Assembly (NCBI GenBank): GCA_015075175.1
Contig: JABTUV010000006.1
Location: 159,271-223,270, forward strand
Direction of reading: 5' to 3'
From: a bacterium
GTDB taxonomy: Bacteria > Hinthialibacterota > Hinthialibacteria > H5-UNCL2
Length of the DNA stretch: 64,000 nucleotides
Made by a program: the position numbers and the translations under genes. The notes beneath the pieces were generated by a model. The model was not told where the DNA came from and ran no database searches. It saw only the letters and a program-made list of their open reading frames with translations. Shown here piece after piece: positions 1 to 64,000 of this stretch. Position 1 is the first letter of the stretch. Every line of letters starts with the position of its first letter.

Positions 1-282
1 GCCGAGGATGACGGCAAACAGCGCCAGCGTGAGTCCCCGCGAGAACGGCGCCCATCCCAGGCTGGGTATGATCCACGCGCCATAACCCAAGAGGAGCATC
101 GCCAGCGGCCGCGAAAGTCCCCAGCCGGCGTCGGGCAGATGTCGCGCGAACATGAACACGATGGGAAACCCGACCAGCGCCAGGAGCTGAAAGAAGAAGA
201 ACCACCGCCGGCCGGGATGGCGCGCGGTGCGGTCGAAGATGCTCCGCCCTTCCTGGTGTTTCAGCACGTCCGTGAGCGTGAT
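1..282 (-). CDS. DUF2298 (YYY membrane protein)-like region, partial; probably the frameshifted continuation of the GT39 gene
   Basis: Open minus frame reads ITLTDVLKHQEGRSIFDR...FQLLALVGFPIVFMFARHLPDAGWGLSRPLAMLLLGYGAW, resembling a DUF2298 N-terminus; a 1-nt shift near 283 would join it to 261..2699. Confidence 0.55.
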   Translation of the reverse strand, partial: MTLTDVLKHQEGRSIFDRTARHPGRRWFFFFQLLALVGFPIVFMFARHLPDAGWGLSRPLAMLLLGYGAWIIPSLGWAPFSRGLTLALFAVILG

Positions 283-2699
283 CGGGCTGCTTCCGGCGGC
301 GGCGACAGGAGGTATTGGCGCAGTTGCTCCGGCGGGACCTCCCGCACTTTCTTAAAGATCGTCACCTTGGGATGGTCGTAGCAATGCGCCGACTCTTCCA
401 CGAGATCGTCGTTGAAGACGATCCCCCACAGGCGCGGATACTTCGTCTCGACGTGAACCAACTCGAAACCCAGCACGCCGGTAAAGAGCAATCGATAGAA
501 ATTGCCCGACGTGGGATAACGGTTGGGCAGGCGCAGGATGGAACCGTAAAGGCGCTTGCTGCTCCAGACGATATAATCCGCGTTGGAGAGCCGCGTGACG
601 AGGTGCGAGAGTTTCCGGTTGCGGTCCTGGCCGTGCTCGATGTCCTCGTTGTACATCTGCAGGTCGGAGTCGCCGCTGGAAAGGCGGAAATAGCTGAAAG
701 GGGACTTGTCGGCGTGCTTGGCGGTGGGAAGGGGGACTTGATCGTCCCAGTGCTCCTTGACCACGCGCGCGTTGCGGGGCGCGTTTTCGTACAGCCAGTT
801 GGAGGCGGCCATGCGCGTGTTGAGGTGGCTGAACATGTTCTGCAGGGCGAAGGCGTAGAAGACCGAGAAGGCCATCGTGCCCGCGCCCACCAGCCCCGTG
901 ACGACCCGCCAGCGCCGGCGCGGGAAACGATCCCAGACGTAAACCAACAGCCACGCCGCGCCCATGATGAAAAAGGGATAGAGCGGCATCATGTAGCGCA
1001 GAAATTTGGCGTGCCAGCCGCCCACGATGTAGAAGTACGGCAGCGCCCACGAAAGAAGCAGCCAATGCGCGTAGGTTATGTCGCCTCGCCTTCCCCAGCG
1101 GTAAGCGGCGAAGGCGATGAAGGCGAGAAGGCCGGCGATTCCCAGAAGCCCGAGCGGTTCGCCCAGGCTGTAATCCACCAGGTTCTTGAGCTGGAAGAAA
1201 TAGGGCACGGTCCCCGCGAACTGGCGCGTGTAGGGCACGTCCCCCTCCGCTTGCGGGCCGCCGACCACGCGGCCTTCGTAGCGGATGGACTCCTTCCACT
1301 TGTCTTGGCGGATGAACTGCATGGGGGCAAGCGTGAAGGCGACAGTGAGGGCGAGGAAGAGGATGATGAGGGGGCCAGCAAGGGCACGCTCGACCAGGCC
1401 GGGGACAGGCGCCGATTTTCCTGCGGGGCTGGGTACGTCTGGCGGAAGTTTTTCCTGGAAAATCGGCGACTGTCCCGCGCGCTCCTGTCCCTCAGAGCCG
1501 CGTCCCATACGGAAGGGATAGAGCGCCAGAGACGCCAACAGCCACGCGGCGGCGACGGGAAAGAGCAGATTGGCGGCGGCGAAGACGAGGGCGTATCGAA
1601 GGGCGACGGCGAAGACGCGGGAGAATGCCGCCAGAGCATCGGCGGGAGTGGCGCCGCCCTGCCAGAGCGGGGTGCGATACACGACCACTGGGGCGCGTTT
1701 GCTCTCACCGGGACGTACGAGGCCGTAGCTGATCTGCTCGTCATACGTCAACTGACCGGCCCGGTAGGCCTTCCAGCGCGCGGCGGGAATCGCCGCCAGC
1801 CGGGGGGTCGTCAGCGCCGGCCCCAGCCACTGGTCCAGCCTGCGCCCCAGTTCGATTCGCTTTTCTCGCGCGATGGGGTCGCGGATGGCGCTCACATCGT
1901 CGAAGTAATGAAATCCCACGAGTACCGGATAAACGGTAAGGGCGACGGAGTAGGCCAGCGTGAGGACGAGCACGACCTGCGCCACGAGCGCGCGCCGGCG
2001 CACGGCGGGCGATTTCTCCTCGCGCTCCCACTGCACGCGCATCCGGCTCAACCAGGCGACGCCGACGGGGGCCAGAAAGGTCAGCGCGGAAAACTTGGTC
2101 GCCAGCGCCGCACCCAAAACGACCCCGATGGCCACGGCGTCCAGCCAGGCCTTAGCGCCCGTGTCGAAAATCCATCGCCAGCACAGGTAGAGCACGAACA
2201 GAAGCCGACGACCAGCAGCGTCTCGACCGTCGAAGTAGTGCGAGCTCTGGATGTGGTGGAAGGCGAAGGACATGAAGAACGCCGACAGCATCCCCACGCG
2301 CCGTCCGAAGAGGCGGCCGGCCAGAAGATAGATGAAGAGAATCGCCAGCGTGCCGTAAATCCCGGACAGGAGGCGCCCGTAGTAGTTGAGCGTGCCGCCG
2401 GAATAGTACGAGACGGGGCGTCCGGAAAGTCCCGCCAGCGCCTGCGCGACCATCTTCGAGACGTAGAAGGGAAAGGTGCCGTAGGCGAAAAAGTCGGGAT
2501 AGAGCGACGAATCGGCGTCCAGGGTGACGTTGCTCCAATTCACCCGCTCGGTCGCGTGGACGATGTTGCGCTCGTCGGAGTGCTGATAGGTCGAGTCGTT
2601 GCGCTCGGTGTCGGTATAGTCCCACTTGAGGTTGGTGCAACGCAGGTAGCCGCCCACGAAGACGAGCAGGGCCAGCGCGGGCAGGATGAGGCGTCTCAT
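261..2699 (-). CDS. GT-C glycosyltransferase family 39 (ArnT/PMT-like) membrane protein
   Basis: HSDE motif after TM1, PDFFAYGTFPFY, GAALATKFSA, KFLRYMMPLYP, EHWDD, YDHPKV; many TM segments. Confidence 0.8.
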   Translation of the reverse strand: MRRLILPALALLVFVGGYLRCTNLKWDYTDTERNDSTYQHSDERNIVHATERVNWSNVTLDADSSLYPDFFAYGTFPFYVSKMVAQALAGLSGRPVSYYSGGTLNYYGRLLSGIYGTLAILFIYLLAGRLFGRRVGMLSAFFMSFAFHHIQSSHYFDGRDAAGRRLLFVLYLCWRWIFDTGAKAWLDAVAIGVVLGAALATKFSALTFLAPVGVAWLSRMRVQWEREEKSPAVRRRALVAQVVLVLTLAYSVALTVYPVLVGFHYFDDVSAIRDPIAREKRIELGRRLDQWLGPALTTPRLAAIPAARWKAYRAGQLTYDEQISYGLVRPGESKRAPVVVYRTPLWQGGATPADALAAFSRVFAVALRYALVFAAANLLFPVAAAWLLASLALYPFRMGRGSEGQERAGQSPIFQEKLPPDVPSPAGKSAPVPGLVERALAGPLIILFLALTVAFTLAPMQFIRQDKWKESIRYEGRVVGGPQAEGDVPYTRQFAGTVPYFFQLKNLVDYSLGEPLGLLGIAGLLAFIAFAAYRWGRRGDITYAHWLLLSWALPYFYIVGGWHAKFLRYMMPLYPFFIMGAAWLLVYVWDRFPRRRWRVVTGLVGAGTMAFSVFYAFALQNMFSHLNTRMAASNWLYENAPRNARVVKEHWDDQVPLPTAKHADKSPFSYFRLSSGDSDLQMYNEDIEHGQDRNRKLSHLVTRLSNADYIVWSSKRLYGSILRLPNRYPTSGNFYRLLFTGVLGFELVHVETKYPRLWGIVFNDDLVEESAHCYDHPKVTIFKKVREVPPEQLRQYLLSPPPEAARSRSRTC
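1402..1476. repeat. Inverted pair of GGGACAG(G/T)CRCCGATTTTCC element inside the GT39 CDS
   Basis: Arms 1402-1421 and 1457-1476 match 19/20; same family at 33390-33463 and 39458-39533. Confidence 0.8.
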
Positions 2700-5042: not shown

Positions 5043-5168
5043 GGGTACCACCCTTTGTACTCAAAAGGGTGGTCCAACGAACTCCAGGGTATCCGTCACT
5101 CGCTCGCGTCTAGAGGGAACCTCGACTCTCCTGTGCACAGTATTGAGCACAAAGGGTGTGGCACCCGC
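5043..5168. repeat. REP-like element GGGT(A/G)CCACCCTTTGTACTCAAAAGGG, inverted pair
   Basis: Palindrome 5047-5073, inverted relative at 5141-5168, second copy at 62481-62512. Confidence 0.7.
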
Positions 5169-6061: not shown

Positions 6062-6077
6062 GGCTCCAATCATGTCC

Positions 6078-8354: not shown

Positions 8355-8361
8355 CGGATGC

Positions 8362-8912: not shown

Positions 8913-9080
8913 TGTGTGGTTTTTCTCCTTTCCTTTTGTAGTTGCGCAGCGCCTTGCCCCGAGTAGGCCGCAGGCCGTATCGAGGGGTGCTGCGCCTGCC
9001 GACAAGGATGCCGGCGGTACGGCGTCGTTGCGAAAGCGGGCTACGCTTCCGCGAACGTACACACCAACCCCTTCGGTATG

Positions 9081-9166: not shown

Positions 9167-9200
9167 GCTCGGAGTTGGGGCCGGCCCGCTGCCGGGTCGC

Positions 9201-9355
9201 TGTCATTTCGACCGCAGGGAGAAATCTTCCCCGCCGCTAAAGCGGGTCGGACAACACAGAAGATTTCTCCCTGCGGTCGAAATGACAGAGAGGTCCCGCG
9301 GTGGAGTGGGTGTGCTGCATTGTGGGGAAGATTTCTCCCTGCGGTCGAAATGACA
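9201..9355. repeat. REP-like family TGTCATTTCGACCG(C/A)AGGGAGAAATCT, three copies (one forward, two reverse)
   Basis: Copies at 9201-9227, 9261-9287, 9329-9355. Confidence 0.9.
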
Positions 9356-9629
9356 AAGAACGCGCCATCCGCGCCGCGGCAGGCGAGGGTTTTCGAGGCA
9401 AGCGGGTTCACGCAGGAGTTGACGGGAGAAGTGGTCTGGGATTGGCCGCGCTAGACGGCGTCCGTCGATACAGGCGCCGCGGCGGACGCAACCACGACTC
9501 GACGCGCGCGCGAGTGGAATCACGGCGTGGTTGAGCGCGCGATTGGCGGTTTTTCCCGCGAAGGAATGTTAGGCTCTCGTCAGGCGGGTGGGACAGGCGT
9601 TCCCGCCCGTGAGCGGTGGGCGAGGGTCG

Positions 9630-9730
9630 TCGATTAAGATTAAGAGCAAGAGCAAGAGCATGAGCAAGAGCAAGAGCAAGAGCAAGATTAAGATTAAGAT
9701 TAAGATTAAGATTAAGATTGAAGATCAAGA
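9630..9730. repeat. Hexamer microsatellite (GATTAA/GAGCAA)n
   Basis: About 16 tandem units of GA(T/G)(T/C)AN starting at TCGA. Confidence 0.9.
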
Positions 9731-10673: not shown

Positions 10674-10746
10674 TCGATTACGATGGAATCGGCATCGTGC
10701 CCGTAATCGATTACGAGCACGAGCAAGATCAAGAGCAAGATTAAGA
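10668..10746. repeat. Hexamer microsatellite in inverted arrangement
   Basis: GTGCCC GTAATC | GATTAC GAGCAC GAGCAA GATCAA GAGCAA GATTAA. Confidence 0.8.
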
Positions 10747-10752
10747 CCGAAA

Positions 10753-11735
10753 ATGATGCTGCGAGATTCCGATCCTCCCCCTCCCAAAGGCGGCCGGCTC
10801 AAGGGCCGGACGGGCCGCGGCTTGGAGGGCTTCTCGCCGGAAGACCGCCGGCAGGTGGTGCGCAGCGTCTATCTCCTGCCCAACCTGTTCACGACCTTCA
10901 ACCTCTTTTTCGGCATCCTGGCGATCCAGTTCGCGGTCAAGGCGTTGATGCGGGTACCCGATCCGAGCGCCTCCATCACGCTGCATCCCAACTTCACCAA
11001 CGCGGCGACCTGCCTGCTCGTAGCCGCCTTCTTCGACGGGCTGGACGGGCTGGCCGCGGTCCTCACGCGCACGACCAGCAAGTTCGGCATGCAATACGAC
11101 TCGCTGGCGGACATGGTGTCGTTCGGCGTGGCGCCGTCCGTCATGCTTTACGCTTTGTTCTTTTCCGGCATCACCAAGCTGGAGGTGGCCATCCTGGGCA
11201 TCTTCGCCATCTGCGCGGCGCTGCGGCTGGCGCGCTACAACGTGCAGGCGGTGAGCGTGGAGAAGGGCGAGTTTCTGGGCCTGCCTTCGCCCGCGCCCGC
11301 GGGCACGCTGGCCTCGCTCATCCTCTTTCTGCACTACTACGGCATCCCCGTGGCCGTCGGCTCGCCCGCGGTGCGCGTGATCTTCATGACCGGCACGCTG
11401 CTTCTGGCCGGACTGATGGTCTCAACGTGCTACACATCAACCCCAAGCGGCCTGCCTTTGCGCGCGTGCGGCGCAACTTTTACTTCCTCGTCGGGTTGCT
11501 CTTCGTCGCCGCCATCGCGATCCAGATGCGGGAGGCGATGCTCCTGGTCGTCTTTTCGGGCTACATCGTGCATGGACTCCTGAGGCACTACCTCTGGGGC
11601 CGCCGACCGCGGAGGGAAACTCCGACGATCCCGTCGAAGCTCCCGCCGGCTCCGATTACGATTCTTAATCTTAATCTTGCTCGTGTTCGTAATCGAGCAA
11701 GATTACGAGCACGATTACGATCACGAACCCGATGA
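10753..11735 (+). CDS. pssA: CDP-diacylglycerol--serine O-phosphatidyltransferase (frameshift near 11425)
   Basis: LLPNLFTTFNLFFG, DGLDG..A.......FG..YDSLADMVSFGVAP, ALRLARYN, FLGLPSP; hydrophobic C-terminus continues in the 11427..11735 frame. Confidence 0.85.
11654..11728. repeat. Hexamer microsatellite with inverted arms around TCGA
   Basis: TTAATC TTAATC TTGCTC GTGTTC GTAATC | GAGCAA GATTAC GAGCAC GATTAC GATCAC. Confidence 0.85.
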
Positions 11736-13310: not shown

Positions 13311-13622
13311 GCTCCAGTCTCCTCCCCGACAGCCCGGCGCAGAGTCACGTCACCGCCTTGACAAACGTGAGCATGGCACTTATTGCCACCCCGACCGCCT
13401 TGAGAGAAGCCTGATAACTAATCCGACAGCCCTGAGCAGGATGGCCTGAGGCGCGCGGAACTTGCGCGAGCGCTCACGACCCTCCTTCGCTTCAGGCCGT
13501 CCGTGTCGAAGGGCGGCCTCTGAAGCTGCATGGTGCCTATACGCATCGTCCCCCGCGCCCCGCCGTGTTAAGGGAGCCAAGGCCGCATCAAGTCGGTTCT
13601 CAGCATTCAAGCCGCGCTTCGA

Positions 13623-13834
13623 CTTCGCGCTGCGCGCTTCGCTCAGCCCTGTCGGTCTCGACGGCGGTGCGCGGTGCGCACGCTACGACACTTCGCGCTG
13701 CGCGCTTCGCTCAACCCTGTCGGTCTCGACGGCGGTGCGCGGTGCGCACCCTACGACACTTCGCGCTGCGCGCTTCGCTCAACCCTGTCGGTCTCGACGG
13801 CGGTGCGCGGTGCGCACCCTACGACACTTCGCGC
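13623..13834. repeat. Three tandem 68-bp composite REP units
   Basis: Units 13623-13690, 13691-13758, 13759-13826; on the minus strand each is GTAGGGTGCGCACCGCGCACC + linker + ACCGACAGGGTTGAGCGAAGCGCGCAGCGCGAAG. Confidence 0.9.
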
Positions 13835-15379: not shown

Positions 15380-15400
15380 GGTGCGCGATGCGCACCCTAC
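15380..15400 (-). repeat. GTAG-family REP
   Basis: Minus strand GTAGGGTGCGCATCGCGCACC. Confidence 0.75.
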
Positions 15401-15474
15401 GCCAGTCGAGTGGTTACGCTAACACAACCATGCAACAGCGTCAATTTCGCCGCGTCCCATGGGTCCCATACGTG

Positions 15475-19608: not shown

Positions 19609-19668
19609 TTGAGGCTCTTAACCCGTTTGTTGACTTACTGCCGTTCCCAGGAGAGCGGTAGCGTTAAG

Positions 19669-19745
19669 CCGTCCTCTCGATACGCGGCGCGAAGGCGCAA
19701 CGCGCATGCCAGTACCTTTCGGCGCGCCGCTACTCGAGCACTCGG
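19669..19745. repeat. REP-like hairpin CCGTCCTCTCGATACGCGGC...GCCGCTACTCGAG
   Basis: Same family at 41698-41776, 41841-41919 and 8957-8987. Confidence 0.75.
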
Positions 19746-20957: not shown

Positions 20958-20966
20958 AGCGTGATC

Positions 20967-21069
20967 GTGGCGGCGACATCTTGTCGCCGGTCTCGGCGGC
21001 CTCCAGGCCGCCGCGCACGCATGTGTCGGTAGGATGCCGACACGACCGGCGACAGGATGTCGCCGTTAC
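20967..21069. repeat. Inverted pair of a GTAG-like REP, GT(G/A)RCGGCGACATCYTGTCGCCGGTC
   Basis: Arms 20967-20992 and 21044-21069. Confidence 0.75.
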
Positions 21070-21083
21070 GGGGAGTCAGGCTC

Positions 21084-22157: not shown

Positions 22158-22233
22158 CCGCCATGAGCCAAGAGGCGCCGTTCACGCAGGTGGGCAAGCA
22201 CAGCACGCTGCGCAACTACGAGATGTAGCCGCT

Positions 22234-25200
22234 ATGAGCGAAAAGACTCCCTTCACGCAGCGCATCGTCGAGGTGTTCCTGGCGGGGAACCTCTCGATCA
22301 TCCTGATTTTGCTTTCGCTCCTGTGCGGCGCGGTCGCACTCTGGGTGACGCCGCGCGAGGAGGAGCCGCAGATCGTCGTCCCCCTCGCCGACGTGTTCAT
22401 CTCCGCTCCCGGCCTGTCGGTCGAGGAAGTGGAGAAGAACATCGCCACGCGCCTGGAGAAACTGCTCTACCAGATCGACGGCGTCGAGTACGTGTACTCC
22501 ATGTCGCGGCCCGGCCAGGCCATCGTCACGGTGCGCTTCTACGTCGGCGAGGACCGCGAGGACAGCCTGGTCAAGATCCATAACAAGCTCCAGTCCAACC
22601 TGGACCGGGTTCACGCGTCGATCACCGGCTGGGTCGTCAAGCCGCTGGAGATCGACGACGTGCCCATCGTGAACTTGACGCTGTGGAGCGAGCGGCCGGA
22701 GGAGTACAGCGACTATCATCTGCGGCGCATCGCCGAGGAGCTGGAGATCCGCCTGCAGTCGGTTCCCAACACCAACCGCGTGGAGGTACTGGGCGGCCGG
22801 CCGCGGGTGGTACGGGTGGAGCTGTCGTCCGAGCGGTTGGCGGCGCATACGGTGTCGGCGCTGGAGATCGCGCGCGCGCTCGCAGTCTCCAACGCGCAAC
22901 GGCCCGCCGGCGGCTTCTCGCAGACCAACCGCGCGTTTCTCGTGGATGCCGGCGTGTTCCTGGATCGCGTCTCCGACGTGGGCAATCTCGTGGTCGGGGT
23001 GCACGACGGCCGGCCCGTCTATCTGCGCGACGTGGCGGAGGTCATCGACGGACCCGATGAACTGGAGCACACCAGTTGGATCGGTTTCGGTCCCGCTGAC
23101 GAGACGCGGAGCGGGGACGGCGCCTATTATCCCGCGGTGCACCTGGCGGTCGCCAAGAAACGCGGCAGCAACGCCGTGACGGTGGCCCGCGCCGTGGAAA
23201 AGAAGGTCGCCGAGCTGGAAAAAACGCTCCTGCCCGACGGCGTCCACGCGCGCACCACCCGCAACTACGGCGAGACCGCCAACCACAAGGTCAACGAACT
23301 GGTCGAGAACCTGGCGGTCGCCATCGTGATCGTGATCGGCCTGATCGCGTTCACGCTCGGCTGGCGCGAGGCCCTGATCGTGGCGGTCGCCGTGCCCATC
23401 ACCTTCTCCCTCACGCTGCTGGTGAATTATCTCTTCGGCTACACCATCAATCGCGTCACGCTGTTTGCGCTTACGCTGGCGCTGGGTCTCGTGGTGGACG
23501 ATCCCATCGTGGACGTGGAGAACATCTATCGCCACCTGCGCATGGGCCGGGAGTCGCCCTTGCGGGCGGTGCTCTCGGCGGTCAATGAAGTCCGCCCGCC
23601 CATCATCCTGGCTACCCTGGCGGTGATCGTCTCGTTCGTGCCCATGTTTTTCATTACCGGCATGATGGGGCCTTACATGCGGCCGATGGCGCTGAACGTG
23701 CCGCTGTCGATGCTGATGTCGCTGGTCGTCGCGTTCACCATCACGCCCTGGATGAGCTACCACATGCTCAAGCGCGAAGCGCGCCCTTCTCCCCCCTTAA
23801 CAAGGGGGGCTGGGGGGGATGGCGCGCGCGAGGAAACCCCGCTGGTCCTGGAACGCACCCTGACCTACCGCGTCTACTCCAGCGTCCTGCGCCCGTTTCT
23901 CGCCTCGCGGCTGCTGGCCTGGGGGCTGTTGGCCGTAACGGCGGGCCTTTTCAGTTACGCCGTGTGGCTGGCGGCGGCGCGGCAGGTTCCGCTCAAGATG
24001 CTGCCCTTCGACAACAAGAACGAGTTCCAGCTGGTGCTGGACATGCCGGAGGGCACGACGCTGGAGACGACGGACGCGGCGGCGCGGGCGCTGGGCGAGG
24101 CGCTGCGCAGCGCGCCGGAAGTCGTCGATTTCCAGATCTACTGCGGCATGGCCTCGGCCATGGATTTCAACGGCCTCGTGCGCCACTACTATTTGCGCAC
24201 GGGTCCCAACGTCGCCGACCTGCGCGTCAACCTGCTGCCCAAGCGCAGGCGGATGCAGCAGTCGCACGAGATTCTCCTGCGCCTGCGGCCGGAACTGGAG
24301 GAAGTCGCGGCGGCCTGGGGCGGGAATCTCAAGCTGGTCGAGGTTCCACCCGGCCCCCCCGTCATATCGACTCTCACCGTAGAAGTGTACGGCGCGTTGG
24401 ACCGTCCTTACAGCGATCTGGCGGTCGCCGCGCGTCGGGTCGAGGAACGCCTGCGCCGCGAGCCGTTCGTCGTCGATGTCGATAGCACCGTTGAGGACAG
24501 GCAGACCAAGTGGGTGTTTACGACCGACAAGGAGAAGGCGGCGCTCTCCGGCGTCTCGACCGCGGACGTGGCGGAGACCGTCGCCCTGGCGCTCGCCGGC
24601 AAGCGGGCGACTTCGCTGCACGTGAAAAGCGAGGTCAATCCGCTCGACATCGTGCTGCGCCTGCCGCTATCGGAGCGAAGCAGTCTGGAAGACCTTCGCT
24701 CGCTCTATCTGAAAGGTCAGAACGGGCCGATGGTCCAACTGGGCGCGCTGGGAGAGTTCAGAGAGAGCGTCCAGGATCAGACCATTTACCACAAGAATCT
24801 GGAGCGGGTGGTGTACGTTTTCGCCGAGATGGCGGGGCGCGCGCCGGCGGAGGCGGTCGTGGACGCGATGGCGGACCTGGTCGCGCACGGAGCATCCCTC
24901 CCAGCCCCCCTCGTTAAGGGGGGATTGAGGGCGCTCTCGGAGCGCACTTATTATCGCAACGGCGGCGGGGATGGCTGGAGCATGCCGCCCGGCACGCGCG
25001 CCGTTTGGAACGGCGAAGGCGAATGGAAAATCACGCTCGACGTGTTTCGAGACCTGGGCGTCGCCTTCGGCGCCGCCTGCATCGGCATTTATATTCTGCT
25101 CATATTTCAAACCGGCAGCTACTTCATGCCGCTGATTCTGATGATCAGCATCCCGCTGACCATGATCGGCATCATGCCCGGCTTCTACCTGCTCAACCTG

Positions 25201-25829: not shown

Positions 25830-25850
25830 GGTGGGTGAAACCCACCCTAC
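25830..25850 (-). repeat. GTAG-family REP between two convergent stop codons
   Basis: Minus strand GTAGGGTGGGTTTCACCCACC. Confidence 0.8.
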
Positions 25851-26071
25851 GCGCCGAGGGCCCAATACTTCTCGAACTCTTCGGAGCTGCTCTCGGTCGC
25901 CAGCTGGGGGCGGAAGAGCTTCATGCGCGGCGGCTTTTCGTTGCGCGTAGCCTCACCCGTCTCGGGCAGATGCTGCACGTAGCGGCGGATGGTGTAGTCG
26001 TCTTCCAACTCGTAGTAGAGCCAGGCGTAACCCTTGCCGGGGACGATCTGCGTGGTCTTTAAATACTTCAT
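25847..26071 (-). CDS. Hypothetical 74-aa protein (weak resemblance to DUF6881-like proteins)
   Basis: MKYLKTTQIVPGKGYAWLYYELEDD...SSEEFEKYW; genome-like codon usage; GAGGAAGG upstream. Confidence 0.6.
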   Translation of the reverse strand: MKYLKTTQIVPGKGYAWLYYELEDDYTIRRYVQHLPETGEATRNEKPPRMKLFRPQLATESSSEEFEKYWALGA

Positions 26072-26083
26072 GGCCTTCCTCAA

Positions 26084-26118
26084 ATGGGACCTATGGGACG
26101 AATAGGACCTATAGGACT
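26084..26118. repeat. 9-mer microsatellite (ATRGGACNN)x4
   Basis: Related tracts at 15454-15470, 25601-25624, 45254-45288, 53124-53150, 60001-60015. Confidence 0.8.
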
Positions 26119-33109: not shown

Positions 33110-33463
33110 TACAAGGGGATATACTGACGGGATTACCGGATGGACAGGATAGGAAAGATGAAACCGACAAGGCTGCGCCGCAGCAATCAACAACCTGAAC
33201 CGACGCGCCTGAGCAGCTGCATGGACTGAACCGACAGGCCTGAGCAGCTGCGAAAACCACAAACCGAAGGCCCTGAGCGAAGCGCGAAGCGCGAAGTCGA
33301 AGGGCCGGCTTACAGGCTGAGGCCCAGCTTTCTGCGGCCATCCGCTCCCCCCTTAACAAGGGGGGCTGGGGGGGGATAGAGGCGGAAGAGGGACAGGCAC
33401 CGATTTTCCGTGGAGATCCTCACCTCACCCGGAACCATGGTACGGACAATCGGCAGCTGTCCC
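33110..33463. repeat. Mosaic of at least four REP/microsatellite families
   Basis: ACAGGAT-like 9-mers; ACCGACAGG-CCTGAGC x3 ending in CTGAGCGAAGCGCGAAGCGCGAAGTCGAAGGG; CCCCCCTTAACAAGGGGGG; GGGACAGGCACCGATTTT inverted pair. Confidence 0.75.
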
Positions 33464-36084: not shown

Positions 36085-36140
36085 TATGGAGTGCGGGTGC
36101 TTGCTCCCGCGCTACAATAGAACAAAAGGCGTGGTGGAAG

Positions 36141-38241: not shown

Positions 38242-39469
38242 GAGGGTGAGCGCGGTCTTCAGCGTTTCCACGACCTCTTCCACATCCGCCTGAGACAGGA
38301 GCGTATGAAAGGGCAGCGCCACGGTGCGGGCCGCGACGCGCTCGCATACCGGAAACATGCCGGGCTGGTAGCCGTAGCGCTCGCGGTAAAAGGGTTGCAG
38401 GTGGATAGGGGGAAAGTAGTTGCTGCAGCCGATGCCGTGGGCGCGGAGATGCTCGAGCACGCGCGAGCGGCGTCCGGGTTGGGCATCGATCGGTTGCACC
38501 ACGTAGACGAACCAGCCTGGGCGCCGGCCCGCCGCGGGTTCGGGAGGAAGCAGGACGCCATCCTCGTCGGCGAGAGCCTCGGCGTACCAGCGGGCGACCC
38601 GCCGGCGCTTCTCCAGTAACTCGGGCAGGCGCGAGAGTTGCACGAGGCCCAGCGCGGCGGAGAAGTCGGGCAGACGGTAGTTGAAGCCGAAGCGCTCGTG
38701 GGCCAGCCAGGGGTCCCCTCACCCTGCCCTCTCCCCGAGGGAGAGGCCTCACACCGCCCTCTCCCCGGGAGAGGGTGACGATCCCTCTCCCTTGGGGAGA
38801 GGGGGGGGTGAGGGGGGCGGTTCGGCGGCCCTGATTGCGCAACGAGCGGCACAGCTCCGCCACGCGCGCATCGCTCGTTACCACCATGCCTCCCTCGCCC
38901 GTGGTCATCTGCTTGTTGGGATAGAAGGCGAAGACGGCCGCCTCGCCCCAGGCGCCGACTTGCTTCCCCCCGATCTCCGCCCCCAGCGCCTCGCAGGCGT
39001 CGTCGATCAGGATCAATCCATGCTTCTTCGCCAGGCGCTCGAAACCCGGCAAGTCGGAGGGAACGCCGAAAACATCTACGGGCAAAAGGCCGCGAACGGA
39101 GTCATCCAGCATTTCTTCCGCGCCTTCCGGGGTGATATTGAGCGTCGCCTCGTCGATGTCCACGAAGACGGGTTCGCCGCCGGCCATAATGACGGCATTG
39201 GCGGTCGCGATAAAACTGAAGGGCGAGGTGATGACGCCCTCGCCTTCCTCCAGGCCGGCGGCCAGCAGCGCCACGTGCAAGCCGGCGGTTCCGTTGCTCA
39301 CGGCGACGGCGTGGGGAACGCCGACATAGCGGGCGAAGGCGGCCTCAAACCGCGGGCCGGTCGGACCCAACGACAGGTCGGGCGTGGCGAGCACGTCCCA
39401 GACCGCTTGGCGCTCGGCGTCGGTCAGGTCGGGGCGCGAGAGATGAATGCGAATGTCGGGGACAGTCAC
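38239..39469 (-). CDS. DegT/DnrJ/EryC1/StrS sugar aminotransferase (REP insertion and frameshift near 38710-38820)
   Basis: AVAVSNGTAGLH, SFIATANA, IDDACEALG, FAFYPNKQMTTGEGG, GFNYRL, YFPPIHLQPFY. Confidence 0.85.
38714..38818. repeat. CCCTCACCCTGCCCTCTCCC...GGGAGAGG-type REP cluster inside the DegT gene
   Basis: Three CCCTCTCC-N-GGGAGAGG hairpins flanked by CCCCTCACCC / GGGTGAGGGG. Confidence 0.85.
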
Positions 39470-39610
39470 CGATTTTGACTCCCCAGCCTGCGATAGGTTT
39501 GCACTGTCGGCTTCAAAATTCGTGCCTGTCCCCGCCTTCCGTGTGCCCCACCGACCTCGAAGCGTGAGGGACAGATGCCCTAACGCAAGCCGGCGAGACG
39601 CCGGCGCTAC
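39458..39610. repeat. GGGACAG-family inverted pair plus a GTAG REP
   Basis: 39458-39476 and 39515-39533; minus-strand GTAGCGCCGGCGTCTCGCCGGC at about 39589-39610. Confidence 0.65.
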
Positions 39611-39624
39611 CGCCCGGCGGTACG

Positions 39625-40714: not shown

Positions 40715-40740
40715 GTTTCCGTCTCCCCGATTGTATGTCA

Positions 40741-40876
40741 TCATTTCGACCGCAGGAGAAATCTTTACCGCCGCGGAAGGCCGGGCGCAAGTGAGAAGAT
40801 TTCTCCCTGCGGTCAAAAATGACAGCCACGGTCGAAATGACAGCCGCGGTCGAAATGACAGCTGCGGTCGAAATGA
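40741..40876. repeat. GTCATTTCGACC REP inverted pair with three extra 18-bp half-units
   Basis: Forward arm 40741-40764; reverse arm from 40797 followed by (CGGTCGAAATGACAGCNR)x3. Confidence 0.88.
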
Positions 40877-40925
40877 GAGGGCGTTGTGCTGAGTAGCGGA
40901 AAACGACGGATGAGAAGGGGGCGAC

Positions 40926-41697: not shown

Positions 41698-41919
41698 CCG
41701 TCCTCTCGATACGCGGCCCGAAGGGACCTCTCGCATCAAAGCGAAGAGCTCCTCGGGCCGCTACTCGAGGACTCGGTTCTTTTCTTTTTCCGGAATTACC
41801 CTCCAATACCTCCTTCCAGAAAAGAACGCGAGAATGTAAGCCGTGTCCTCGAGTAGGCCCCGCCGAGGCACTTTCATGAGAGGGAAGAAATAACTTCGGG
41901 ACCGTATCGAGAGGCGCGG
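41698..41919. repeat. Large inverted pair of the CTCGATAC...CTACTCGAG element between convergent genes
   Basis: 41698-41776 mirrored by 41841-41919 around an AT-richer spacer. Confidence 0.75.
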
Positions 41920-41970
41920 CGGCCTAATACCGGTTGATCCGCGTTCACGCCACCGCTTGTTTCCTCCTCA

Positions 41971-43958: not shown

Positions 43959-44136
43959 GTCATTCCGACCGAAGCCGACTGTCATTTCGACCGAGGGAGA
44001 AATCTTCATTCCGACCGAAGCCGACTGTCATTCCGACCGAGGCCGACTGTCATTTCGACCGAAGGGAGAAATCTTCTTCCTTATACTCGACCCACTGCGA
44101 CCGGCGGAAAGATTTCTCCCTTCGGTCGAAATGACA
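43959..44136. repeat. GTCATTTCGACC REP cluster with 21-bp half-units and an inverted arm
   Basis: GTCATTCCGACCGA(A/G)GCCGACT units, two full forward arms, reverse arm 44110-44136. Confidence 0.88.
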
Positions 44137-44485
44137 GCTCTGTACACAAAGCGCAAAAATTGAATCTGCACTCCGCTGAGTGCCAAGAGCGGCTGAATCT
44201 TGATCGCAGCACGCAAAAACGTACACGCCCGAGAACATTTGCCGAGCGGGCTGCGTCTTTACCAGTAGAGACTGTGTTTCCTGTTCTTTGATATTCGGGG
44301 TGGGCGACGCACAAGGTTTGGCGGAAGCATGGCGGGTCAATCGCCTCTGGGTCGCACGGGCACGGTAGTTTTTGGCGGCCTTCTGCTTATGTCGTCCACC
44401 CCGAACCTATTTTTCCACGCCAATAAGATCAAATATCATCAATACGTCATTATTCTCAATGCGCTTGCTGCGGTTGTAGCTAGCG

Positions 44486-47441: not shown

Positions 47442-47481
47442 GGCCGGCAATGTAGCTCGGGGATGGGCGGGATGCAAGCTT

Positions 47482-47577
47482 GTAGGGTGCGCACCGCGCA
47501 CCGCCCGATCACGGTCCGGTAGGGTGCGCACCGCGCACCGCCCAATCACGGTCCGGTAGGGTGCGCACCGCGCACCG
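47482..47577 (+). repeat. Tandem GTAG REP, 37-bp period, 2.6 copies
   Basis: GTAGGGTGCGCACCGCGCACCG at 47482, 47519, 47556 with near-identical linkers. Confidence 0.9.
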
Positions 47578-47662
47578 GGCGCATTTTGCGATACACTTGC
47601 GCTCCGGTTTGGAGTACTAAAGAGGGCATCCAAGCCACGCCGGGCAGGCAGGAGTCTCTTTC

Positions 47663-48670
47663 ATGCGCGCAGGCCGGACGGACTCCGAGTTCCGCTACCG
47701 CATCCAGCGCAGCGAACGGCCCTTCAACTGGTCGCTGTTCCGCGGGCTGTTTCTGATCGCGTGCTGCCTGTTGCTGATCAGTCTCAACGTGCGGAGCGAG
47801 TTCGGCGACTCGCTTTCGTCCTACGTGGTGCTGCCGTTGAACTACATCTATGGGCAGGCGCGGGAGGGCGTCCTGTCGGCAGGGGACGCGGTGGCGCGGC
47901 ACTGGGAGGCGGCGCGGCGGCTTGGCGCGGTCGAGGCGGAGAACGCCGATCTGCGCGACCAGTTGACGGCGCTGTCGCTGGAAGTGACCCAGTATCGCGC
48001 CATGGCGGCGACCTGGGGGTTGCACCAGTATTTCGGGGAGGCGCGCACGTTGCCCGCCGCCGTGATTGCGGTCTCCGACGATCCCCTGCGCCGCACCGCG
48101 CTCCTGGACCGGGGCGAAGTGCACGGCCTGTCCAAGTACATGCCGGTGGTCGTAGCCGGCGCGTCGGGGGAACCCGTACTGGTGGGACGCATCGTGGAGG
48201 TGCGCCCGTATGCCGCCCTCCTCCTGCTCGTGGTGGATCCGCAGAGCGCCGTCGCCGCCGTCGTTGCCAACGAGGTTCTTTCGTCTACCGAGGTTCTTTC
48301 GCCTACTTCTCTCATTGCGACTACCTCTGTCATTTCGACCACCTCTCTCATTTCGACCCCTTCTGTCATTTCGACCGAAGGGAGAAATCTTGTCCACGGC
48401 ATGGTGCGGGGGACGGGGGAGGGGTGCGTGGTGTCCGTACCCCGCGATGCCGAGTTGTCCGCCGGTGATCTCGTCTACACCTCGGGGCGCGGCGTCTATT
48501 TTCCTCCCGATCTTTACCTGGGTCGTATCGCCGGCCAGCATCCGGACGCGGCGGGCCTGGACCTGGTCTACCGGTTGGAGCCAGCCTTTCGCCTCTCCGA
48601 CCTGCGGGAGGTCTTGATTCTGCCCAATCTGTATCGTGATGACGCGCAGAAGTTGGGGGTGGGGCCGTGA
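47663..48670 (+). CDS. mreC: Rod shape-determining protein MreC with a repeat-derived insertion
   Basis: TM, AENADLR coiled coil, LDRG..HGL...MPVV, LVGRIVEV, GDLVYTSG.G..FPPDL.LG; synteny with mreD-mrdA-rodA. Confidence 0.88.
   Translation: MRAGRTDSEFRYRIQRSERPFNWSLFRGLFLIACCLLLISLNVRSEFGDSLSSYVVLPLNYIYGQAREGVLSAGDAVARHWEAARRLGAVEAENADLRDQLTALSLEVTQYRAMAATWGLHQYFGEARTLPAAVIAVSDDPLRRTALLDRGEVHGLSKYMPVVVAGASGEPVLVGRIVEVRPYAALLLLVVDPQSAVAAVVANEVLSSTEVLSPTSLIATTSVISTTSLISTPSVISTEGRNLVHGMVRGTGEGCVVSVPRDAELSAGDLVYTSGRGVYFPPDLYLGRIAGQHPDAAGLDLVYRLEPAFRLSDLREVLILPNLYRDDAQKLGVGP
48272..48391 (+). repeat. Six 18-bp units ending in a full GTCATTTCGACCGAAGGGAGAAATCT, in frame in mreC
   Basis: Encodes EVLSST EVLSPT SLIATT SVISTT SLISTP SVISTE GRNL. 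Confidence 0.88.
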
Positions 48671-49169
48671 AGACAACCTGGCGGCTCGCATCGCCGCGAC
48701 TGCTGTCACCGCGGCGGCTCCTGTCCCTGCGACAACTTTTGTCATTTCGACCGCTCTTGTCATTTCGAACGTTCCTGTCATTTCGACCGCTCCTGTCATT
48801 TCGACCGAAGGGAGAAATCCCCCTGCACCCTCTTGCTCCTCCCAGCACGACACGCAAGATTTCTCCCTCGGTCGAAATGACAACGGCGAGGACGCGCAGA
48901 AGTTGGGGGTGGGGCCGTGAAGACAACCTGGCGGCTCGCATCGCCGCGACTGCTGTCACCGCGGCGGCTCCTGTCCCTGCGACAACTTTTGTCATTTCGA
49001 CCGTTCCTGTCATTTCGACCGTTCCTGTCATTTCGACCGAAGGGAGAAATCCCCCTGCACCCTCTTGCTCCTCCCAGCACCATGCGCAAGATTTCTCCCT
49101 TCGGTCGAAATGACAACGGCGAGGACGCACAGAAGTTGGGGGTGGGGCCGTGAAGACAACCTGGCGGCT
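48641..49169 (+). repeat. Tandem duplication (250 + 233 bp) with three copies of the 46-bp mreC/mreD junction
   Basis: GACGC(G/A)CAGAAGTTGGGGGTGGGGCCGTGAAGACAACCTGGCGGCT at 48641, 48891, 49124; each unit holds a REP inverted pair. Confidence 0.92.
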
Positions 49170-51498: not shown

Positions 51499-51745
51499 TC
51501 TTAATCGCAGTCGTGTTCGTGCTTGCAGTCGTGTTCACGCCAGCGGCCCGCTGTCATTTCGACCGAAGGGAGCAATCCTGCTATCCTCGCGGCATGGAGG
51601 GCAAGGCGAGGGGAGATTTCTCCCGTCGGTCGAAGATTTCTCCCTTCGGTCGAAATGACAGGGGCGTGTTCGTAATCGTGCTCGTGCTCGATTAAGAGTA
51701 AGATTATGAACAAGATTAAGATTAGGAGTAGGACTAGGATCAAGA
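51493..51745. repeat. Hexamer array interrupted by a GTCATTTCGACC REP cassette
   Basis: Hexamers 51493-51537 and 51666-51745; REP arms at 51552-51577, 51614-51633, 51634-51660. Confidence 0.85.
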
Positions 51746-58222: not shown

Positions 58223-58264
58223 AGGTTCGCGGTTTGAACGCTCACGCATTTCCGGAGCGCGCCG

Positions 58265-58316
58265 GCGGAGTACGAATTTCAGTTTGCTTCAGGACAAACT
58301 AAAGTCTGTACTCCGC
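58265..58316. repeat. Inverted pair GCGGAGTAC..(A/G)(A/C)TT(C/T)AGTTTG between convergent genes
   Basis: Arms 58265-58286 and 58295-58316. Confidence 0.7.
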
Positions 58317-58334
58317 GCGCGTGATACCTTCCCT

Positions 58335-60098: not shown

Positions 60099-61525
60099 AT
60101 GTTGAAGCGCAGTTATCCCTACTATCTGGCCAACCGAGCGGTCGCGGCCAACCGCGAGTTGGAGGTCGTCAACAAGTACACGCGGAAGGTCGCCACGCGG
60201 GTGGCGTTGGCGGACGGAGCGGCGCTCGCGGAGGCCATCGGGCGCGCGGGGGATGCGGCGGCGCCGCTGCGGCGGCTGCCGGCGCATCGCCGCGCGGCCG
60301 TCCTGCATCATCTGGCGAACGGAATGAGCGCGCGCGCCGAAGAGCTGGCCGAGGCGCTGGCCATCGAGGCGGGCAAACCCATCCGCGACAGCCGCGTCGA
60401 GATCACCCGCGCCATCGACACCGTGCGCATCGCCGCCGAGGAGGCGCTGCGCCTCTACGGCCAGTATCTGCCGCTGGACATCTCGCCCCGCGCCGAGCAT
60501 TTCCAGGCCATCACCAAACGCGCCCGTGGGCGTATGCGTTTCATTACGCCCTTCAATTTTCCCATCAACCCAGTCGCGCACTAAGATCGCGCCCGCCATC
60601 GCCGTGGGTTGTCCCTGGATTCTCAAGCCCGCCTCGGCGACGCCCGTGGGCGCGCTCCTCTTGGGCGAAATGCTGGCCGAGACCGATCTCCCGCCCGGCG
60701 CGTTTTCCATTCTGCCCTGCCACGGCAAGGACGCCGCGCCGCTCGTGGAGGATGAACGCATCGGGAAGATCTCCTTCACCGGTTCCGCCGAGGTGGGTTG
60801 GCAGATCAAGGCGCGTTCGGGCAAGAAGCGCGTCACGCTGGAACTGGGCGGCAACGCCGCCGCCATCGTGGACGAGGACGCCGATCTGGATTACGCGACC
60901 GAGCGCCTCACCTTCGGCGCGTTCTACCAGTCGGCCAGAGCTGCATCAGCGTGCAGCGCATCTTGGCGCATGAGAAGATTTACGACGCGCTGGTGCAACG
61001 GCTGGTCTCAGCGGCGGAAAGCTGGTCATGGGGGACCCGCTGGACGAGATTACGTTTCTGGGGCCGCTGATCACCGAGGGCGACGCAAAGCGGATCGAGC
61101 AGTGGGTGAAAGCGGCGCGGCAGGGCGGCGCAAGACTCCTCTGCGGCGGCAAGCGCAAGGGCGCGTTCTATTCCGCCACGCTTCTGGACAACGTCTCGCC
61201 CGACATGCAGGTCACTGCAACGAAATCTTCGGCCCGGTGGCCGTGCTGTACAGGTTCGGATTTCAAGGACGCCTGCGCGATGGTCAACGACAGCCGCTAC
61301 GGTCTGCAAGCGGGCGTCTTCACGCGCGACCTGCACAAGGCCTTCTACGCCTGGAACGAACTGGAAGTCGGGGGCGTCGTGGTCAACGACGCGCCCAGCG
61401 TGCGCGTGGACAGCATGCCCTACGGGGGCGTGAAGGACAGCGGGCTGGGACGCGAGGGGGTGCGCTGGGCGATGGAGAGCATGACCGAGGAGCGCTGCTG
61501 CTCTGTCGCGCGTCGGGAAAATTAG
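60099..61525 (+). CDS. Aldehyde dehydrogenase, disrupted by about five frameshifts (errors or pseudogene)
   Basis: EAGKP, ITPFNFP, LKPA, SFTGS, LELGGNAA, GQSCIS, EIFGPV, YGLQAG, PYGGVKDSGLGREG in shifting frames. Confidence 0.8.
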
Positions 61526-61636
61526 GGTCAGCGCCTAATTTTGCGGGCGGAAATTGGGGTCAGCGCCTGATTTTGAACGCGAGATGATCGCCCGCCGAAG
61601 GAGCTGCGCCAAAATCAGGCGCTGACCCCAATTTCC
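61517..61636. repeat. REP-like AAATT(A/G)GGGTCAGCGCCT(A/G)ATTTT, two direct copies and one inverted
   Basis: 61517-61542, 61550-61574, 61611-61636. Confidence 0.85.
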
Positions 61637-62399
61637 TCACGCCATGATGTGGAAGCCCGCGTCCACGAACAGCACTTCCCCGGTGATGTTCCTGGACATG
61701 TCCGACGCCAGAAAGAGCGCCGCCTGGCCGACGTCGCTGTCGCTGATGTTGCGGCGCAGCGGCGCGCGTTCTTCTACGTGCGCGAGAATCGAGCCGAACC
61801 CGGAAATCCCTCGCGCCGCCAGCGTTTTGACCGGCCCGGCGGAAATCCCGTTCACGCGAATCCCCAAGGGGCCTAGATCGGCGGCGAGATAGCGCACGCT
61901 CGCCTCCAGGGCCGCCTTGGCCACGCCCATCACGTTGTAGTTGGGCACGACCCGCTGCGCGCCCAGGTAAGTCAACGCGATAATGCTGCCGCCGCCGCGC
62001 TTCTCGAACAGCGGCAGCGCCGGTCGCGTGACGGCGACCAACGAATAGGCCGAAACTTCGTTGGCGATGCGGAATCCGTCGCGCGAGGTATCGACATATC
62101 GCCCCGCCAGTTCCTCCTTGCGCGCAAAGGCCACGCTGTGCACGAGCACGTCCAGCCCGCCGCACTCCCTGTCGGTGTTCGCGCACCGCGGCGATCTCGT
62201 CATCATTGGTCACGTCGCAGTCGTAACAGAGCGTTCCCTGGACGGTCTCCGCCAGCGCGCGCACGTTGCGTTCCATGCGCTCGCCCTGATAGGTCAATAC
62301 CAGGCGCGCGCCCGCCTGGGAAAACGCCTGCGCAATCGCCCACGCCAGGCTGCGGTCGTTGGCCACGCCATAAACGAGGGCGGTCTTGTCCTTCAACAT
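61637..62399 (-). CDS. fabI: Enoyl-ACP reductase (frameshift near 62190)
   Basis: [59 protein letters not shown]. Confidence 0.92.
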
Positions 62400-62480
62400 G
62401 TGTCGTCCTTGTTGGTGTTGGTCGGGGCAGTGTAGAGATAGCGACGCGATTGTCAAGATGAGGGCCCGGTTGGAAATCCA

Positions 62481-62512
62481 CGGGTGCCACCCCTTTGTAC
62501 TCAAAAGGGCGG
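62481..62512. repeat. Copy of the 5043 element
   Basis: CGGGTGCCACCCCTTTGTACTCAAAAGGG. Confidence 0.75.
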
Positions 62513-62624
62513 GTGCGGTGCGGGTGCGGCTGCTTGCTGCCGCGGGCGCGGTGGTCCGCGTACGCAAACGGCGGCGGCGAGCAGCCGCACCCAAAGCGAA
62601 ACCCTCTCCCGCAGGCGGCGGGAG

Positions 62625-63660: not shown

Positions 63661-63706
63661 GCTTTTCTCCTTCCGGAGTCCAATCTTCAGTTTGTTTTAG
63701 AGCAGG

Positions 63707-64000
63707 CTAAAGCCTGGACTCCGCAATCATCTTCTCGATGGCGGCGAAGACTTCCGCGACGGTGAAGGGCCGTCCCTGAATCTTGCCGTAGCCGTGCGCG
63801 TCCACGAGATAGTGGGCGCGCAGGACCATCTTCAACTGCCCGAGGTTGAGCTCGGGCACAAGAATCTTCTTGTAGCTTCGCAGCAGAGTTCCCAGGTTGC
63901 GCGGGAACGGATTGAGATAGCGCAAATGGGCGTGGGCGACGGAGAGGCCGCGCCGCTGGGCGCGCTCGACCGCGGTGCGAACCGCGCCGTAAGTTCCGCC
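63707..64000 (-). CDS. korA: 2-oxoacid:ferredoxin oxidoreductase alpha subunit, 3' end
   Basis: HLRYLNPFP.NL, VPELNLGQL, KIQGRPF; upstream of the beta subunit. Confidence 0.88.
   Translation of the reverse strand, partial: GGTYGAVRTAVERAQRRGLSVAHAHLRYLNPFPRNLGTLLRSYKKILVPELNLGQLKMVLRAHYLVDAHGYGKIQGRPFTVAEVFAAIEKMIAESRL

Follow-up and report, generated by a model that had tools for sequence, protein, structure and literature searches.

Hairpin repeat families coexisting in one bacterial genome and the small genes that lie between their copies

The window analysed here is a 64,000-nucleotide (nt) stretch of contig JABTUV010000006.1 (C46:159271-223270) from the 4.98-Mb assembly of a wastewater-type bacterial genome, which comprises 49 contigs with 65% G+C and is rated 84% complete. 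Its genes are ordinary housekeeping genes (an rpmH-rnpA-yidD-yidC-jag cluster, dnaJ, an AcrAB-type pump, mreC, PBP2, rodA, purD and purE), its G+C content is 64-69% throughout, and short hairpin-forming repeats lie between the genes. An earlier sequence-only reading had proposed that about ten families of repetitive extragenic palindromes (REPs) and microsatellites coexist in the window with no mobiliser among them. All of the families that it listed were recovered, and 20 of the 22 gaps of at least 150 base pairs (bp) contain one or more family members on a crude gene map. For about half of the families a partner gene was found outside the window, each between copies of its own repeat. The best explanation is that at least 15 dispersed hairpin-forming repeat families colonise the genome and that the window itself is ordinary. 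We propose that the repeats are probably gene-less copies of several independent systems, each composed of a hairpin repeat and one small partner gene that is present elsewhere in single copy.

Repeat families in the window and across the genome

The head of family A, GTCATTTCGACC, has 26 matches in the window with at most one mismatch, where 0.37 are expected and none of 100 shuffles gave more than 2. Relaxed patterns for the families were compared with 20 mononucleotide shuffles of the window (Table 1). Families A, B, C, E, F, H, I, O, P and S exceeded all 20 shuffles, and D and G were modestly above them. The loose patterns of J, Q, R and the 9-mers were not above the shuffles within the window, so the case for these four as real families comes entirely from the exact genome-wide counts. 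Families E and S were additional finds in the window, and T was found outside it. Folding as single-stranded DNA revealed that 12 of 12 representative elements fold better than their own shuffles, ten with z-scores from -3.9 to -13.6 and two short GTAG-type elements with z-scores of about -2. An Rfam search of the window returned no family at gathering scores.

The families are not confined to the window, each being spread over 7-27 of the 49 contigs. A genome-wide census of 16-mers yielded 801 words with at least 15 copies, which were assembled into 190 strings and 26 groups, and stretches of at least 18 nt made of 15-mers with at least 8 copies add up to 131 kb (2.6% of the genome). Depending on the family, 55-92% of the copies fall within the non-coding 23% of the genome, as delimited by a crude gene caller based on G+C at third codon positions. 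Repeats are no commoner at contig ends (10 of 98) than in random 300-bp windows (10.6%), and there was no sign of partner genes hidden at assembly breaks. A census of 13-mers was unusable, being flooded by GC-rich low-complexity words, and clustering of repeat islands by common 12-mers was dropped in favour of curated cores because neighbouring families abut and nearly all of them fused into one component. The census also met two local arrays outside the window: a 37-nt unit with 32 copies on one contig, probably a CRISPR array, and an 18-36-nt unit with 77 copies in tandem on another single contig.

Table 1. Matches to the family patterns in the window, with the mean of 20 shuffles, and exact cores in the genome
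Family	Pattern	Window count	Shuffle mean	Exact cores in genome
A	TGTCATTTCGACC	24	0.05	676 (12-mer head, on 24 contigs)
B	GTAGGGTGCGCACCGCGCACC	7	0	154
C	GTAGTTGCGCAGCG	2	0	192
D	CTCGAGTAG / CTCTCGATAC	3 and 4	0.8 and 0.7	247 and 270
E		2	0	171
F	GGAGTAC..AGTTTG	3	0	88 plus 46
G	GGGTCAGCGCC	3	0.5	145
H	CCCCCCTTAACAAGGGGGG	3	0	33
I	CCCTCTCCC..GGGAGAGG	2 hairpins by pattern, each on both strands	0.1	353 (9-mer CCCTCTCCC)
J		9	5.65	89
K	hexamer arrays (AAGATT, AAGAGC and similar units)	6 arrays, at 4 sites		148 arrays
L	9-mers	8	3.5	42 arrays
O	GGGACAG..GATTT	4	0	71
P		2	0	17
Q		2	1.9	53
R		1	0.45	29
S		2	0	13
T		no copy found		21

Small genes between copies of the repeats

The statement that the window holds no mobiliser was borne out by Pfam searches with 35 main open reading frames (ORFs) and 102 gap ORFs (of 174 listed), which revealed no transposase, GIY-YIG, DUF559, PDDEXK_3 or 23S_rRNA_IVP domain. 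Genome-wide, a scan was made for pairs of hits of the same family that stand 220-1300 bp apart; 20 of the 22 shortlisted intervals were examined by comparing their 119 longest six-frame ORFs with Pfam. The intervals between hits of family D proved to be mosaic tandem clusters and not genes.

The association of REPs or REPINs with REP-associated tyrosine transposases (RAYTs), in units called REPtrons, was reportedly described by Bertels and Rainey in 2011. According to Di Nocera et al. 2013 (PMC3733652), RAYT genes sit between their own REPs and species with several GTAG families have repeat-specific REPtrons. Three RAYT-type partners were found here, for GTAGGGTGCGCACC (family B, with the GTAG tag), GGAGTAC..AGTTTG (family F) and GGGTCAGCGCC (family G). 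The gene C3:4109-4681 is preceded by four forward GTAGGGTGCGCACCGCGCACC units of family B and followed by five reverse ones; together they are a textbook REPtron, and the link between GTAG REPs and RAYTs made by the sequence-only reading holds at this locus. C5:16318-16974 (219 residues) lies between arrays of family F units, and C46:237764-238430 (221 residues) lies between two family G doublets, 14.5 kb past the window end. A genome scan with Pfam Y1_Tnp returned two genes, those on C46 (50.6 bits) and C5 (27.7 bits), the C3 gene scoring 16.5 bits. With the NCBIfam model REP_Tyr_transpos (NF047646, cut-off 80) the C3 gene reached 171.2 bits, and the C5 and C46 genes scored 75.2 and 71.1 bits, below the cut-off. 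HUH-like HLH/HVH/HYH and Y..NP motifs are visible in the C46, C5 and C3 translations.

Similar to known REP-RAYT systems, families B, F and G are short hairpins, often in inverted doublets, with tens to hundreds of mostly intergenic copies, and each has one single-copy RAYT-like gene amid copies of its own family. The presence of several families with repeat-specific RAYTs in one genome and of in-frame intragenic copies also agrees with the systems described in PMC3733652. However, the GTAG tag, which is present in B, C, D, J and Q, is absent from F and G despite their RAYT-like partners, whose scores remain below the NCBIfam cut-off, and the assembly lacks a dedicated RAYT for any of the GTAG families C, D, J and Q. 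We also searched 40 related genomes, the relatives available being no closer than class level. At their RAYT loci (the best 29, mostly of IS200 type) none of the families of this genome was found beyond four single core hits at chance level.

The partner of family A is a small GIY-YIG gene at C14:8947-9253, which lies between family A arms (8871-8945 on the plus strand and 9228-9355 on the minus strand) and has its last codons and stop within the right arm. The gene reads in three frames, and the broken pieces score only weakly with Pfam GIY-YIG (22.1 and 20 bits); it shares 64-66% identity over 90 residues with an intact 102-residue homologue in a Luteimonas metagenome-assembled genome (MAG), where the layout is the same. 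Contigs from four public runs, belonging to four studies, carry one extra base at two places (locus positions 277 and 319), which restores a single frame, and are otherwise identical. Therefore, the frame breaks are most likely indel errors of the assembly, and the view of this putative ssnA gene as decayed was abandoned. Two runs have a contig joint that omits the 477 bases holding ssnA; this joint was rejected as an empty site, its shorter side being only 30 letters long and lying in the repeated arms.

Family A has the consensus TGTC-ATTTCGACC-GAAG-GGAGAAAT-CTT. An arm in full reads TGTCATTTCGACCG(A/C)AGGGAGAAATCTT, with an inverted partner usually 25-55 nt from it, and tandem multiplication of its initial 18 nt is frequent. 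In Di Nocera et al. (PMC3733652), CGTC-tagged REPs are defined by a tag that may also be TGTC, an 8-9-bp stem starting with AT and a 4-5-nt loop, mostly in head-to-head dimers; they were found in five phyla and, as of 2013, were said to "apparently lack a dedicated transposase". Chenal et al. 2025 (PMC11893778) describe NTS motifs (in Neisseria) and SRM motifs that flank single-domain GIY-YIG ssnA genes (cd10448), at least one SRM motif being near 71% of the ssnA homologues and 42% having them on both sides. Four purified Ssn homologues cut single-stranded DNA beside their own motif, and the Ssn/NTS pair modulates transformation in N. meningitidis (PMC11893778). The SRM elements are the same as the CGTC-tagged REPs, dRS3 and RPE-4/6 of Di Nocera et al. 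(PMC3733652). Family A fits this definition and is an SRM, that is, a CGTC/TGTC-tagged REP of known kind: its tag is TGTC followed by AT, its 9-bp stem starts with AT, its loop has 4 nt, it occurs mostly in head-to-head doublets, and a GIY-YIG gene of about 100 residues, a candidate for a single-domain member of the Ssn clade, lies between its arms. It differs from the published cases in its stem (TTTCGACC..GGAGAAA), which is unlike that of the Neisseria NTS, in the large number of exact 12-mer heads (676), which places the genome among repeat-rich hosts, and in the frequent multiplication of the heads as 18-nt tandem units, once in frame in mreC.

The exact family A 25-mer was found at more than 117 places in public genomes of many phyla, often as the same inverted pair. 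Hosts among the matches listed are Flavobacterium, Pedobacter, Luteimonas, Ignavibacteria, Desulfobacterota, Nitrospirales, Riflebacteria, Binataceae, Anaerolineae and one Bathyarchaeota MAG. On the contig of the latter, which has an archaeal label, the 25-mer is accompanied by its inverted partner arm; this could reflect transfer or a binning error. The layout of a GIY-YIG gene between A arms recurs in Flavobacterium, Luteimonas and Pedobacter records. Five genomes chosen through the family A motif, and hence a biased sample, contain 18 small GIY-YIG genes; GTCAT-headed arms flank 7 of these on both sides and another 3 on a single side. In the 40 relatives, which were not chosen by motif, inverted GTCAT-headed arms were found at 5 of 12 small GIY-YIG loci and at none of 18 UvrC-size matches. 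A literature search with the family A head and related 12-mers returned only primers in unrelated papers.

Family I consists of the hairpin CCCTCTCCC-loop-GGGAGAGG, often followed by a G-rich tail, which resembles the C-run/G-run hairpins of the BoxC / PIT type. The single DUF559 gene of the genome (PF04480, 143 bits; PRK09767 type) lies between family I hairpins on both sides. In the relatives, CCCTCTCC/GGGAGAGG-type motifs occur on both sides at 11 of 25 DUF559 loci, compared with 0 of 18 and 0 of 28 control loci; the controls in this comparison, in that of the GIY-YIG loci and in that of the GxxExxY loci are matches inside long genes with coding DNA on either side, which makes the contrast a generous one. 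For the BoxC type no published partner enzyme was found in the open-access papers searched, and an action of the DUF559 protein on the hairpin is putative.

The single GxxExxY gene (PDDEXK_3, 137.9 bits; TIGR04256, 140.9 bits) has inverted family T arrays on either side, and in the relatives inverted arms of at least 16 nt are present at 16 of 28 GxxExxY loci and at 1 of 18 controls. In addition, the genome has three four-helix-bundle genes (PF05635, TIGR02436), two of which lie between inverted short-period arrays. The gene on C11 is enclosed by inverted hexamer arrays, with nonamers alongside, and the gene on C12 by nonamer arrays. The head-to-head hexamer pairs of the window, which meet at TCGA, have the same arrangement as the one whose centre holds the C11 gene. 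Inverted arms of at least 16 nt were found at 10 of 22 four-helix-bundle loci of the relatives, mostly made of 7-8-nt tandem units. In one relative a four-helix-bundle gene and a GxxExxY gene are located 1.5 kb apart on the same strand (C26:9454-9765 and 11241-11576).

The GIY-YIG, DUF559 and four-helix-bundle genes, which the sequence-only reading had named as neighbours of such repeats, are each nested in inverted copies of a family that occurs in the window. The RAYT and Ssn pairings have already been published. No paper on the DUF559, GxxExxY or four-helix-bundle pairings was found in the open-access papers searched, and these three are apparently unpublished.

Origin of the repeats

Based on these loci, we propose that RAYTs are the partners of B, F and G, the SsnA-type GIY-YIG protein, presumably a nuclease specific for single-stranded DNA, of A, the DUF559 protein (Vsr-like) of I and, judging by shape, probably of H, the four-helix-bundle proteins of the hexamer (K) and nonamer (L) arrays, and the GxxExxY protein, of PD-(D/E)xK type, of T. 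A partner would recognise the hairpin of its family on single-stranded DNA, for example at the replication fork or on incoming DNA, and cut beside it. The repeats might then spread by cut-and-rejoin in the case of RAYT, or by repair and template copying after cleavage. The DUF559 and GxxExxY proteins, both with PD-(D/E)xK folds, would act likewise, and the four-helix-bundle protein would bind its own arrays and depend on another enzyme. The partners may spread the repeats, and the DUF559, GxxExxY and four-helix-bundle proteins may act on the repeats that flank them.

The nesting was compared with the rest of the genome. Of the 10 partner-type genes from the five partner families, 8 are enclosed at a distance of up to about 200 bp by inverted copies of a single dispersed family, as are 25 of 3523 crude genes (Fisher's exact test, one-sided, p 1e-15); this contrast is somewhat inflated by unequal criteria, as the partner flanks were judged on the sequence with variant units allowed and the background by exact cores, and one of the 25 background genes is itself a RAYT. 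Neither condition that would have refuted the sequence-only reading holds, since the families extend beyond the window and gene families are associated with them. Its further idea, that different small nucleases from elsewhere in the genome may act in trans on the non-GTAG families in a multi-family system of repeat dissemination, stands in part. GIY-YIG with A and DUF559 with I agree with it, and the multi-family system stands as an association; however, G and F have RAYT-like genes rather than another class of enzyme.

Several observations weigh against the proposed systems, besides the generous controls and the unequal flank criteria. We know of no nuclease motif in the four-helix-bundle protein. 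For about ten families (C, D, E, J, Q, O, H, P, R and S) the flank scan, the interval scan and NF047646 gave no partner in the 84%-complete assembly, and C, D and E are among the most abundant of all (192, about 250 and 171 exact cores). Hexamer arrays also flank four ordinary genes. In PMC11893778, the likeness of NTS-ssnA-NTS to an insertion sequence and a spread of the repeats by it are put forward only as a hypothesis, and the role given to Ssn is cleavage of single-stranded DNA in the restriction of transformation, not transposition.

By NF047646 the assembly holds only four RAYT-like genes. Either the single GTAG-type RAYT or genes in the missing 16% of the genome may act for C, D, J and Q, the GTAG families that lack a partner. 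Family O resembles G in outline and family H resembles the hairpins beside the DUF559 genes of the relatives; we would infer a link in both cases, from these likenesses only. On the crude map, the genes flanked by A, B, C, D, E, Q and S appear to be ordinary metabolic or envelope genes by sequence.

Alternatively, the small genes could themselves be mobile and home into pre-existing hairpins that had spread by another route, the nesting being a choice of target. Each partner indeed lies in the spacer or centre of a head-to-head repeat pair, and the family C element at 8937-8999, whose loop holds a D-like hairpin, shows that hairpin loops are insertion sites. Two genes, which count against the hairpin-plus-partner systems as well, agree with homing. 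The four-helix-bundle gene C4:100074-100388 has private inverted arms of 17-19 nt that belong to no dispersed family, and it apparently lies within coding DNA, the sequence to either side being open and coding-like. The fourth RAYT-like gene (C1:968850-969244, by NF047646), split over two frames, lies inside an open frame of 861 codons, and its flanking hairpin occurs just 5 times in the genome, again belonging to no dispersed family. However, each gene family is tied to one repeat architecture across distant genomes, and RAYT and Ssn recognise that very hairpin according to PMC11893778 and PMC3733652. In addition, the partners are single-copy and the repeats number tens to hundreds, the opposite of what a self-spreading gene would give. 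We consider homing unlikely.

Another explanation is selection for a host function: the repeats could act as terminators, mRNA stabilisers, nucleoid sites or marks governing foreign-DNA uptake, with the partners as their regulators or guards. The mostly intergenic location of the copies fits such a role, and so does the modulation of transformation by the Neisseria Ssn/NTS pair (PMC11893778). Moreover, hexamer arrays within 150 bp upstream of genes are in sense orientation in 49 cases and in antisense in 21, which might indicate a host or regulatory role and weighs against the proposed systems. Such service would require that more than 15 unrelated sequence families share one job in one genome; it is also at odds with the in-frame copies in acrB, mreC and a glycosyltransferase-like ORF, with the tandem and mosaic clusters and with the widely variable family sizes. 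From similar unevenness Di Nocera et al. argue against one general function (PMC3733652), and we regard selection for a host function as improbable here. That the repeats are ordinary miniature inverted-repeat transposable elements, internally deleted from classical DDE insertion sequences in the genome, is very improbable: several long repeats with 9-13 copies do resemble insertion sequences (unannotated), but family arm pairs 220-1300 bp apart enclose no transposase other than RAYT and no DDE gene, and the families have REP architecture, being single or doubled hairpins 20-100 nt long whose 5' tags (GTAG, TGTC) are conserved.

Returning to the systems of hairpin and partner gene, a more far-reaching version can be put forward, which taken as a whole we find possible but doubtful. 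The genome would hold at least five mechanistically different replicators composed of a repeat and a guardian gene, three of which would be REPIN-RAYT counterparts not described so far, pairing DUF559 with BoxC-like hairpins, GxxExxY with arrays of the heptad type and four-helix-bundle proteins with 6- to 9-mer arrays. The "microsatellites" would be arms of mobile elements and not products of slippage, their partner being a DNA-binding four-helix bundle that borrows a host nuclease, and the orphan GTAG families C, D, J and Q would be kept by cross-service from the single GTAG-type RAYT.

Elements of the window and their significance

The elements of the window are listed in Table 2.

Table 2. 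Repeat elements of the window (window positions), with folding of representative elements
Family	Position	Strand	Description	Folding
A	9197..9356		SRM / TGTC-tagged REP; inverted doublet 9197-9291 and extra right arm 9324-9356	-42.5 kcal/mol, z -13.6
A	40740..40877		doublet, then three tandem 18-nt head units	
A	43959..44140		cluster: tandem heads, half element, full doublet 44045-44140	z -11.0
A	48275..48392	+	18-nt head-unit array and one arm, in frame within MreC ORF; MreC profile interrupted	
A	48739..48885		doublet, four tandem heads; between mreC and next gene	
A	48989..49118		doublet; second copy of 232-250 bp tandem duplication	
A	51547..51664		doublet	
R + B	13617..13834	-	three 68-bp tandem units, each a family R stretch (GCTTCGCTCAG) joined to a family B GTAG REP	
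B	15380..15402	-	GTAG REP, single	
B	47480..47578	+	three GTAGGGTGCGCACCGCGCACC units	
C	8937..8999	+	GTAG REP (GTAGTTGCGCAGC..), D-like hairpin in loop	
C	22201..22222	-	GTAG REP	
D	19666..19738		long hairpin, CTCTCGATAC ... CTACTCGAG	
D	41698..41925		two long hairpins, inverted orientation	z -4.5
E	36088..36110	+	GGAGTGCGGCWGCTTGCTGCCGC	
E	62521..62551	+		
F	58262..58320		doublet (GGAGTAC..AGTTTG)	z -5.9
F	63675..63694	+	single unit	
G	61515..61642		GGGTCAGCGCC; single unit and doublet 61543-61642	z -10.3
H	23789..23820	+	hairpin (CCCCCCTTAACAAGGGGGG and G-run), in frame within AcrB-type ORF	
H	24884..24924	-	inverted copy, in frame within the same AcrB-type ORF	
H, O	33341..33407	+	family H hairpin, then family O unit	
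I	38715..38803		three CCCTCTCCC..GGGAGAGG hairpins (BoxC-like)	z -4.7
J	39583..39612	-	GTAG REP (GTAGCGCCGGC..)	
K	9630..9719	+	hexamer array (AAGATT / AAGAGC units)	
K	10701..10752	+	hexamer array	
K	11661..11728		two hexamer arrays head to head, joining at TCGA	
K	51668..51741		two hexamer arrays head to head, joining at TCGA	
L	26083..26117	+	nonamer array (GGGACCTAT type)	
L	15453-15470, 25607-25625, 45249-45287, 53118-53148, 60001-60014		further short arrays	
O	1402..1476		doublet (GGGACAG..GATTTT / AAAATC..CTGTCCC) in glycosyltransferase-like ORF, frame stays open	z -6.3
O	39459..39475	+	single unit	
P	5050..5071	-	CCCTTTTGAGTACAAAAGGG	
P	62490..62509	-		
Q	25838..25851	-	GTAG REP (GTAGGGTGGGT..)	
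R	33261..33309	+	CCCTGAGCGAAG, then GCGCGAA-type heptads	
S	20966..21070		doublet (CGGCGACATCTTGTCGCCG)	z -9.5

Four copies lie in frame in ORFs that stay open: two of H in the AcrB-type ORF, one of A in MreC, where the heads give a six-residue periodic array, and one of O in the glycosyltransferase-like ORF. Similar to the Rickettsia palindromic elements and intragenic REPs cited in PMC3733652, H, A and O keep the reading frame of the ORFs into which they are set; however, the sequence families and the host lineage are different, and the inserted peptides here are predicted from ORFs.

Around mreC, positions 48638-49170 comprise a unit of 232-250 bp in tandem, with two full copies that are 97% alike and the leading part a third time; the unit contains the last part of mreC and the beginning of the ORF after it, together with an entire family A doublet. 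The hexamer arrays at 9630-9719, 10701-10752 and 51688-51741 reach the start codons of three genes. The rpmH-rnpA-yidD-yidC-jag cluster, which commonly lies near the replication origin, is on the minus strand at 5180-9089, and the cumulative GC skew climbs across most of the window. Five genes of the window are split over two or three frames: rodA (51747-53206) and the genes for an aldehyde dehydrogenase (60099-61584), a DegT aminotransferase (38231-40138), a short-chain dehydrogenase (61563-62624) and a heparinase-like protein (15475-18956). Because of these splits themselves and of the single-base gaps at the ssnA locus relative to independent contigs, we think that they point to indel errors of the assembly rather than to pseudogenes.

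REPs are usually discussed as one system, REPIN-RAYT, and this genome shows many side by side, its intergenic DNA being largely built from many repeat systems on one chromosome. It is a rich new host for the RAYT and Ssn systems, the latter with its hundreds of Ssn-type heads. Annotation pipelines should mask the repeats, because they give rise to spurious ORFs and to in-frame insertions in housekeeping genes. Since the layout around the DUF559, GxxExxY and four-helix-bundle genes recurs in the relatives and no paper on it was found, these common "hypothetical" families gain a role that can be tested.

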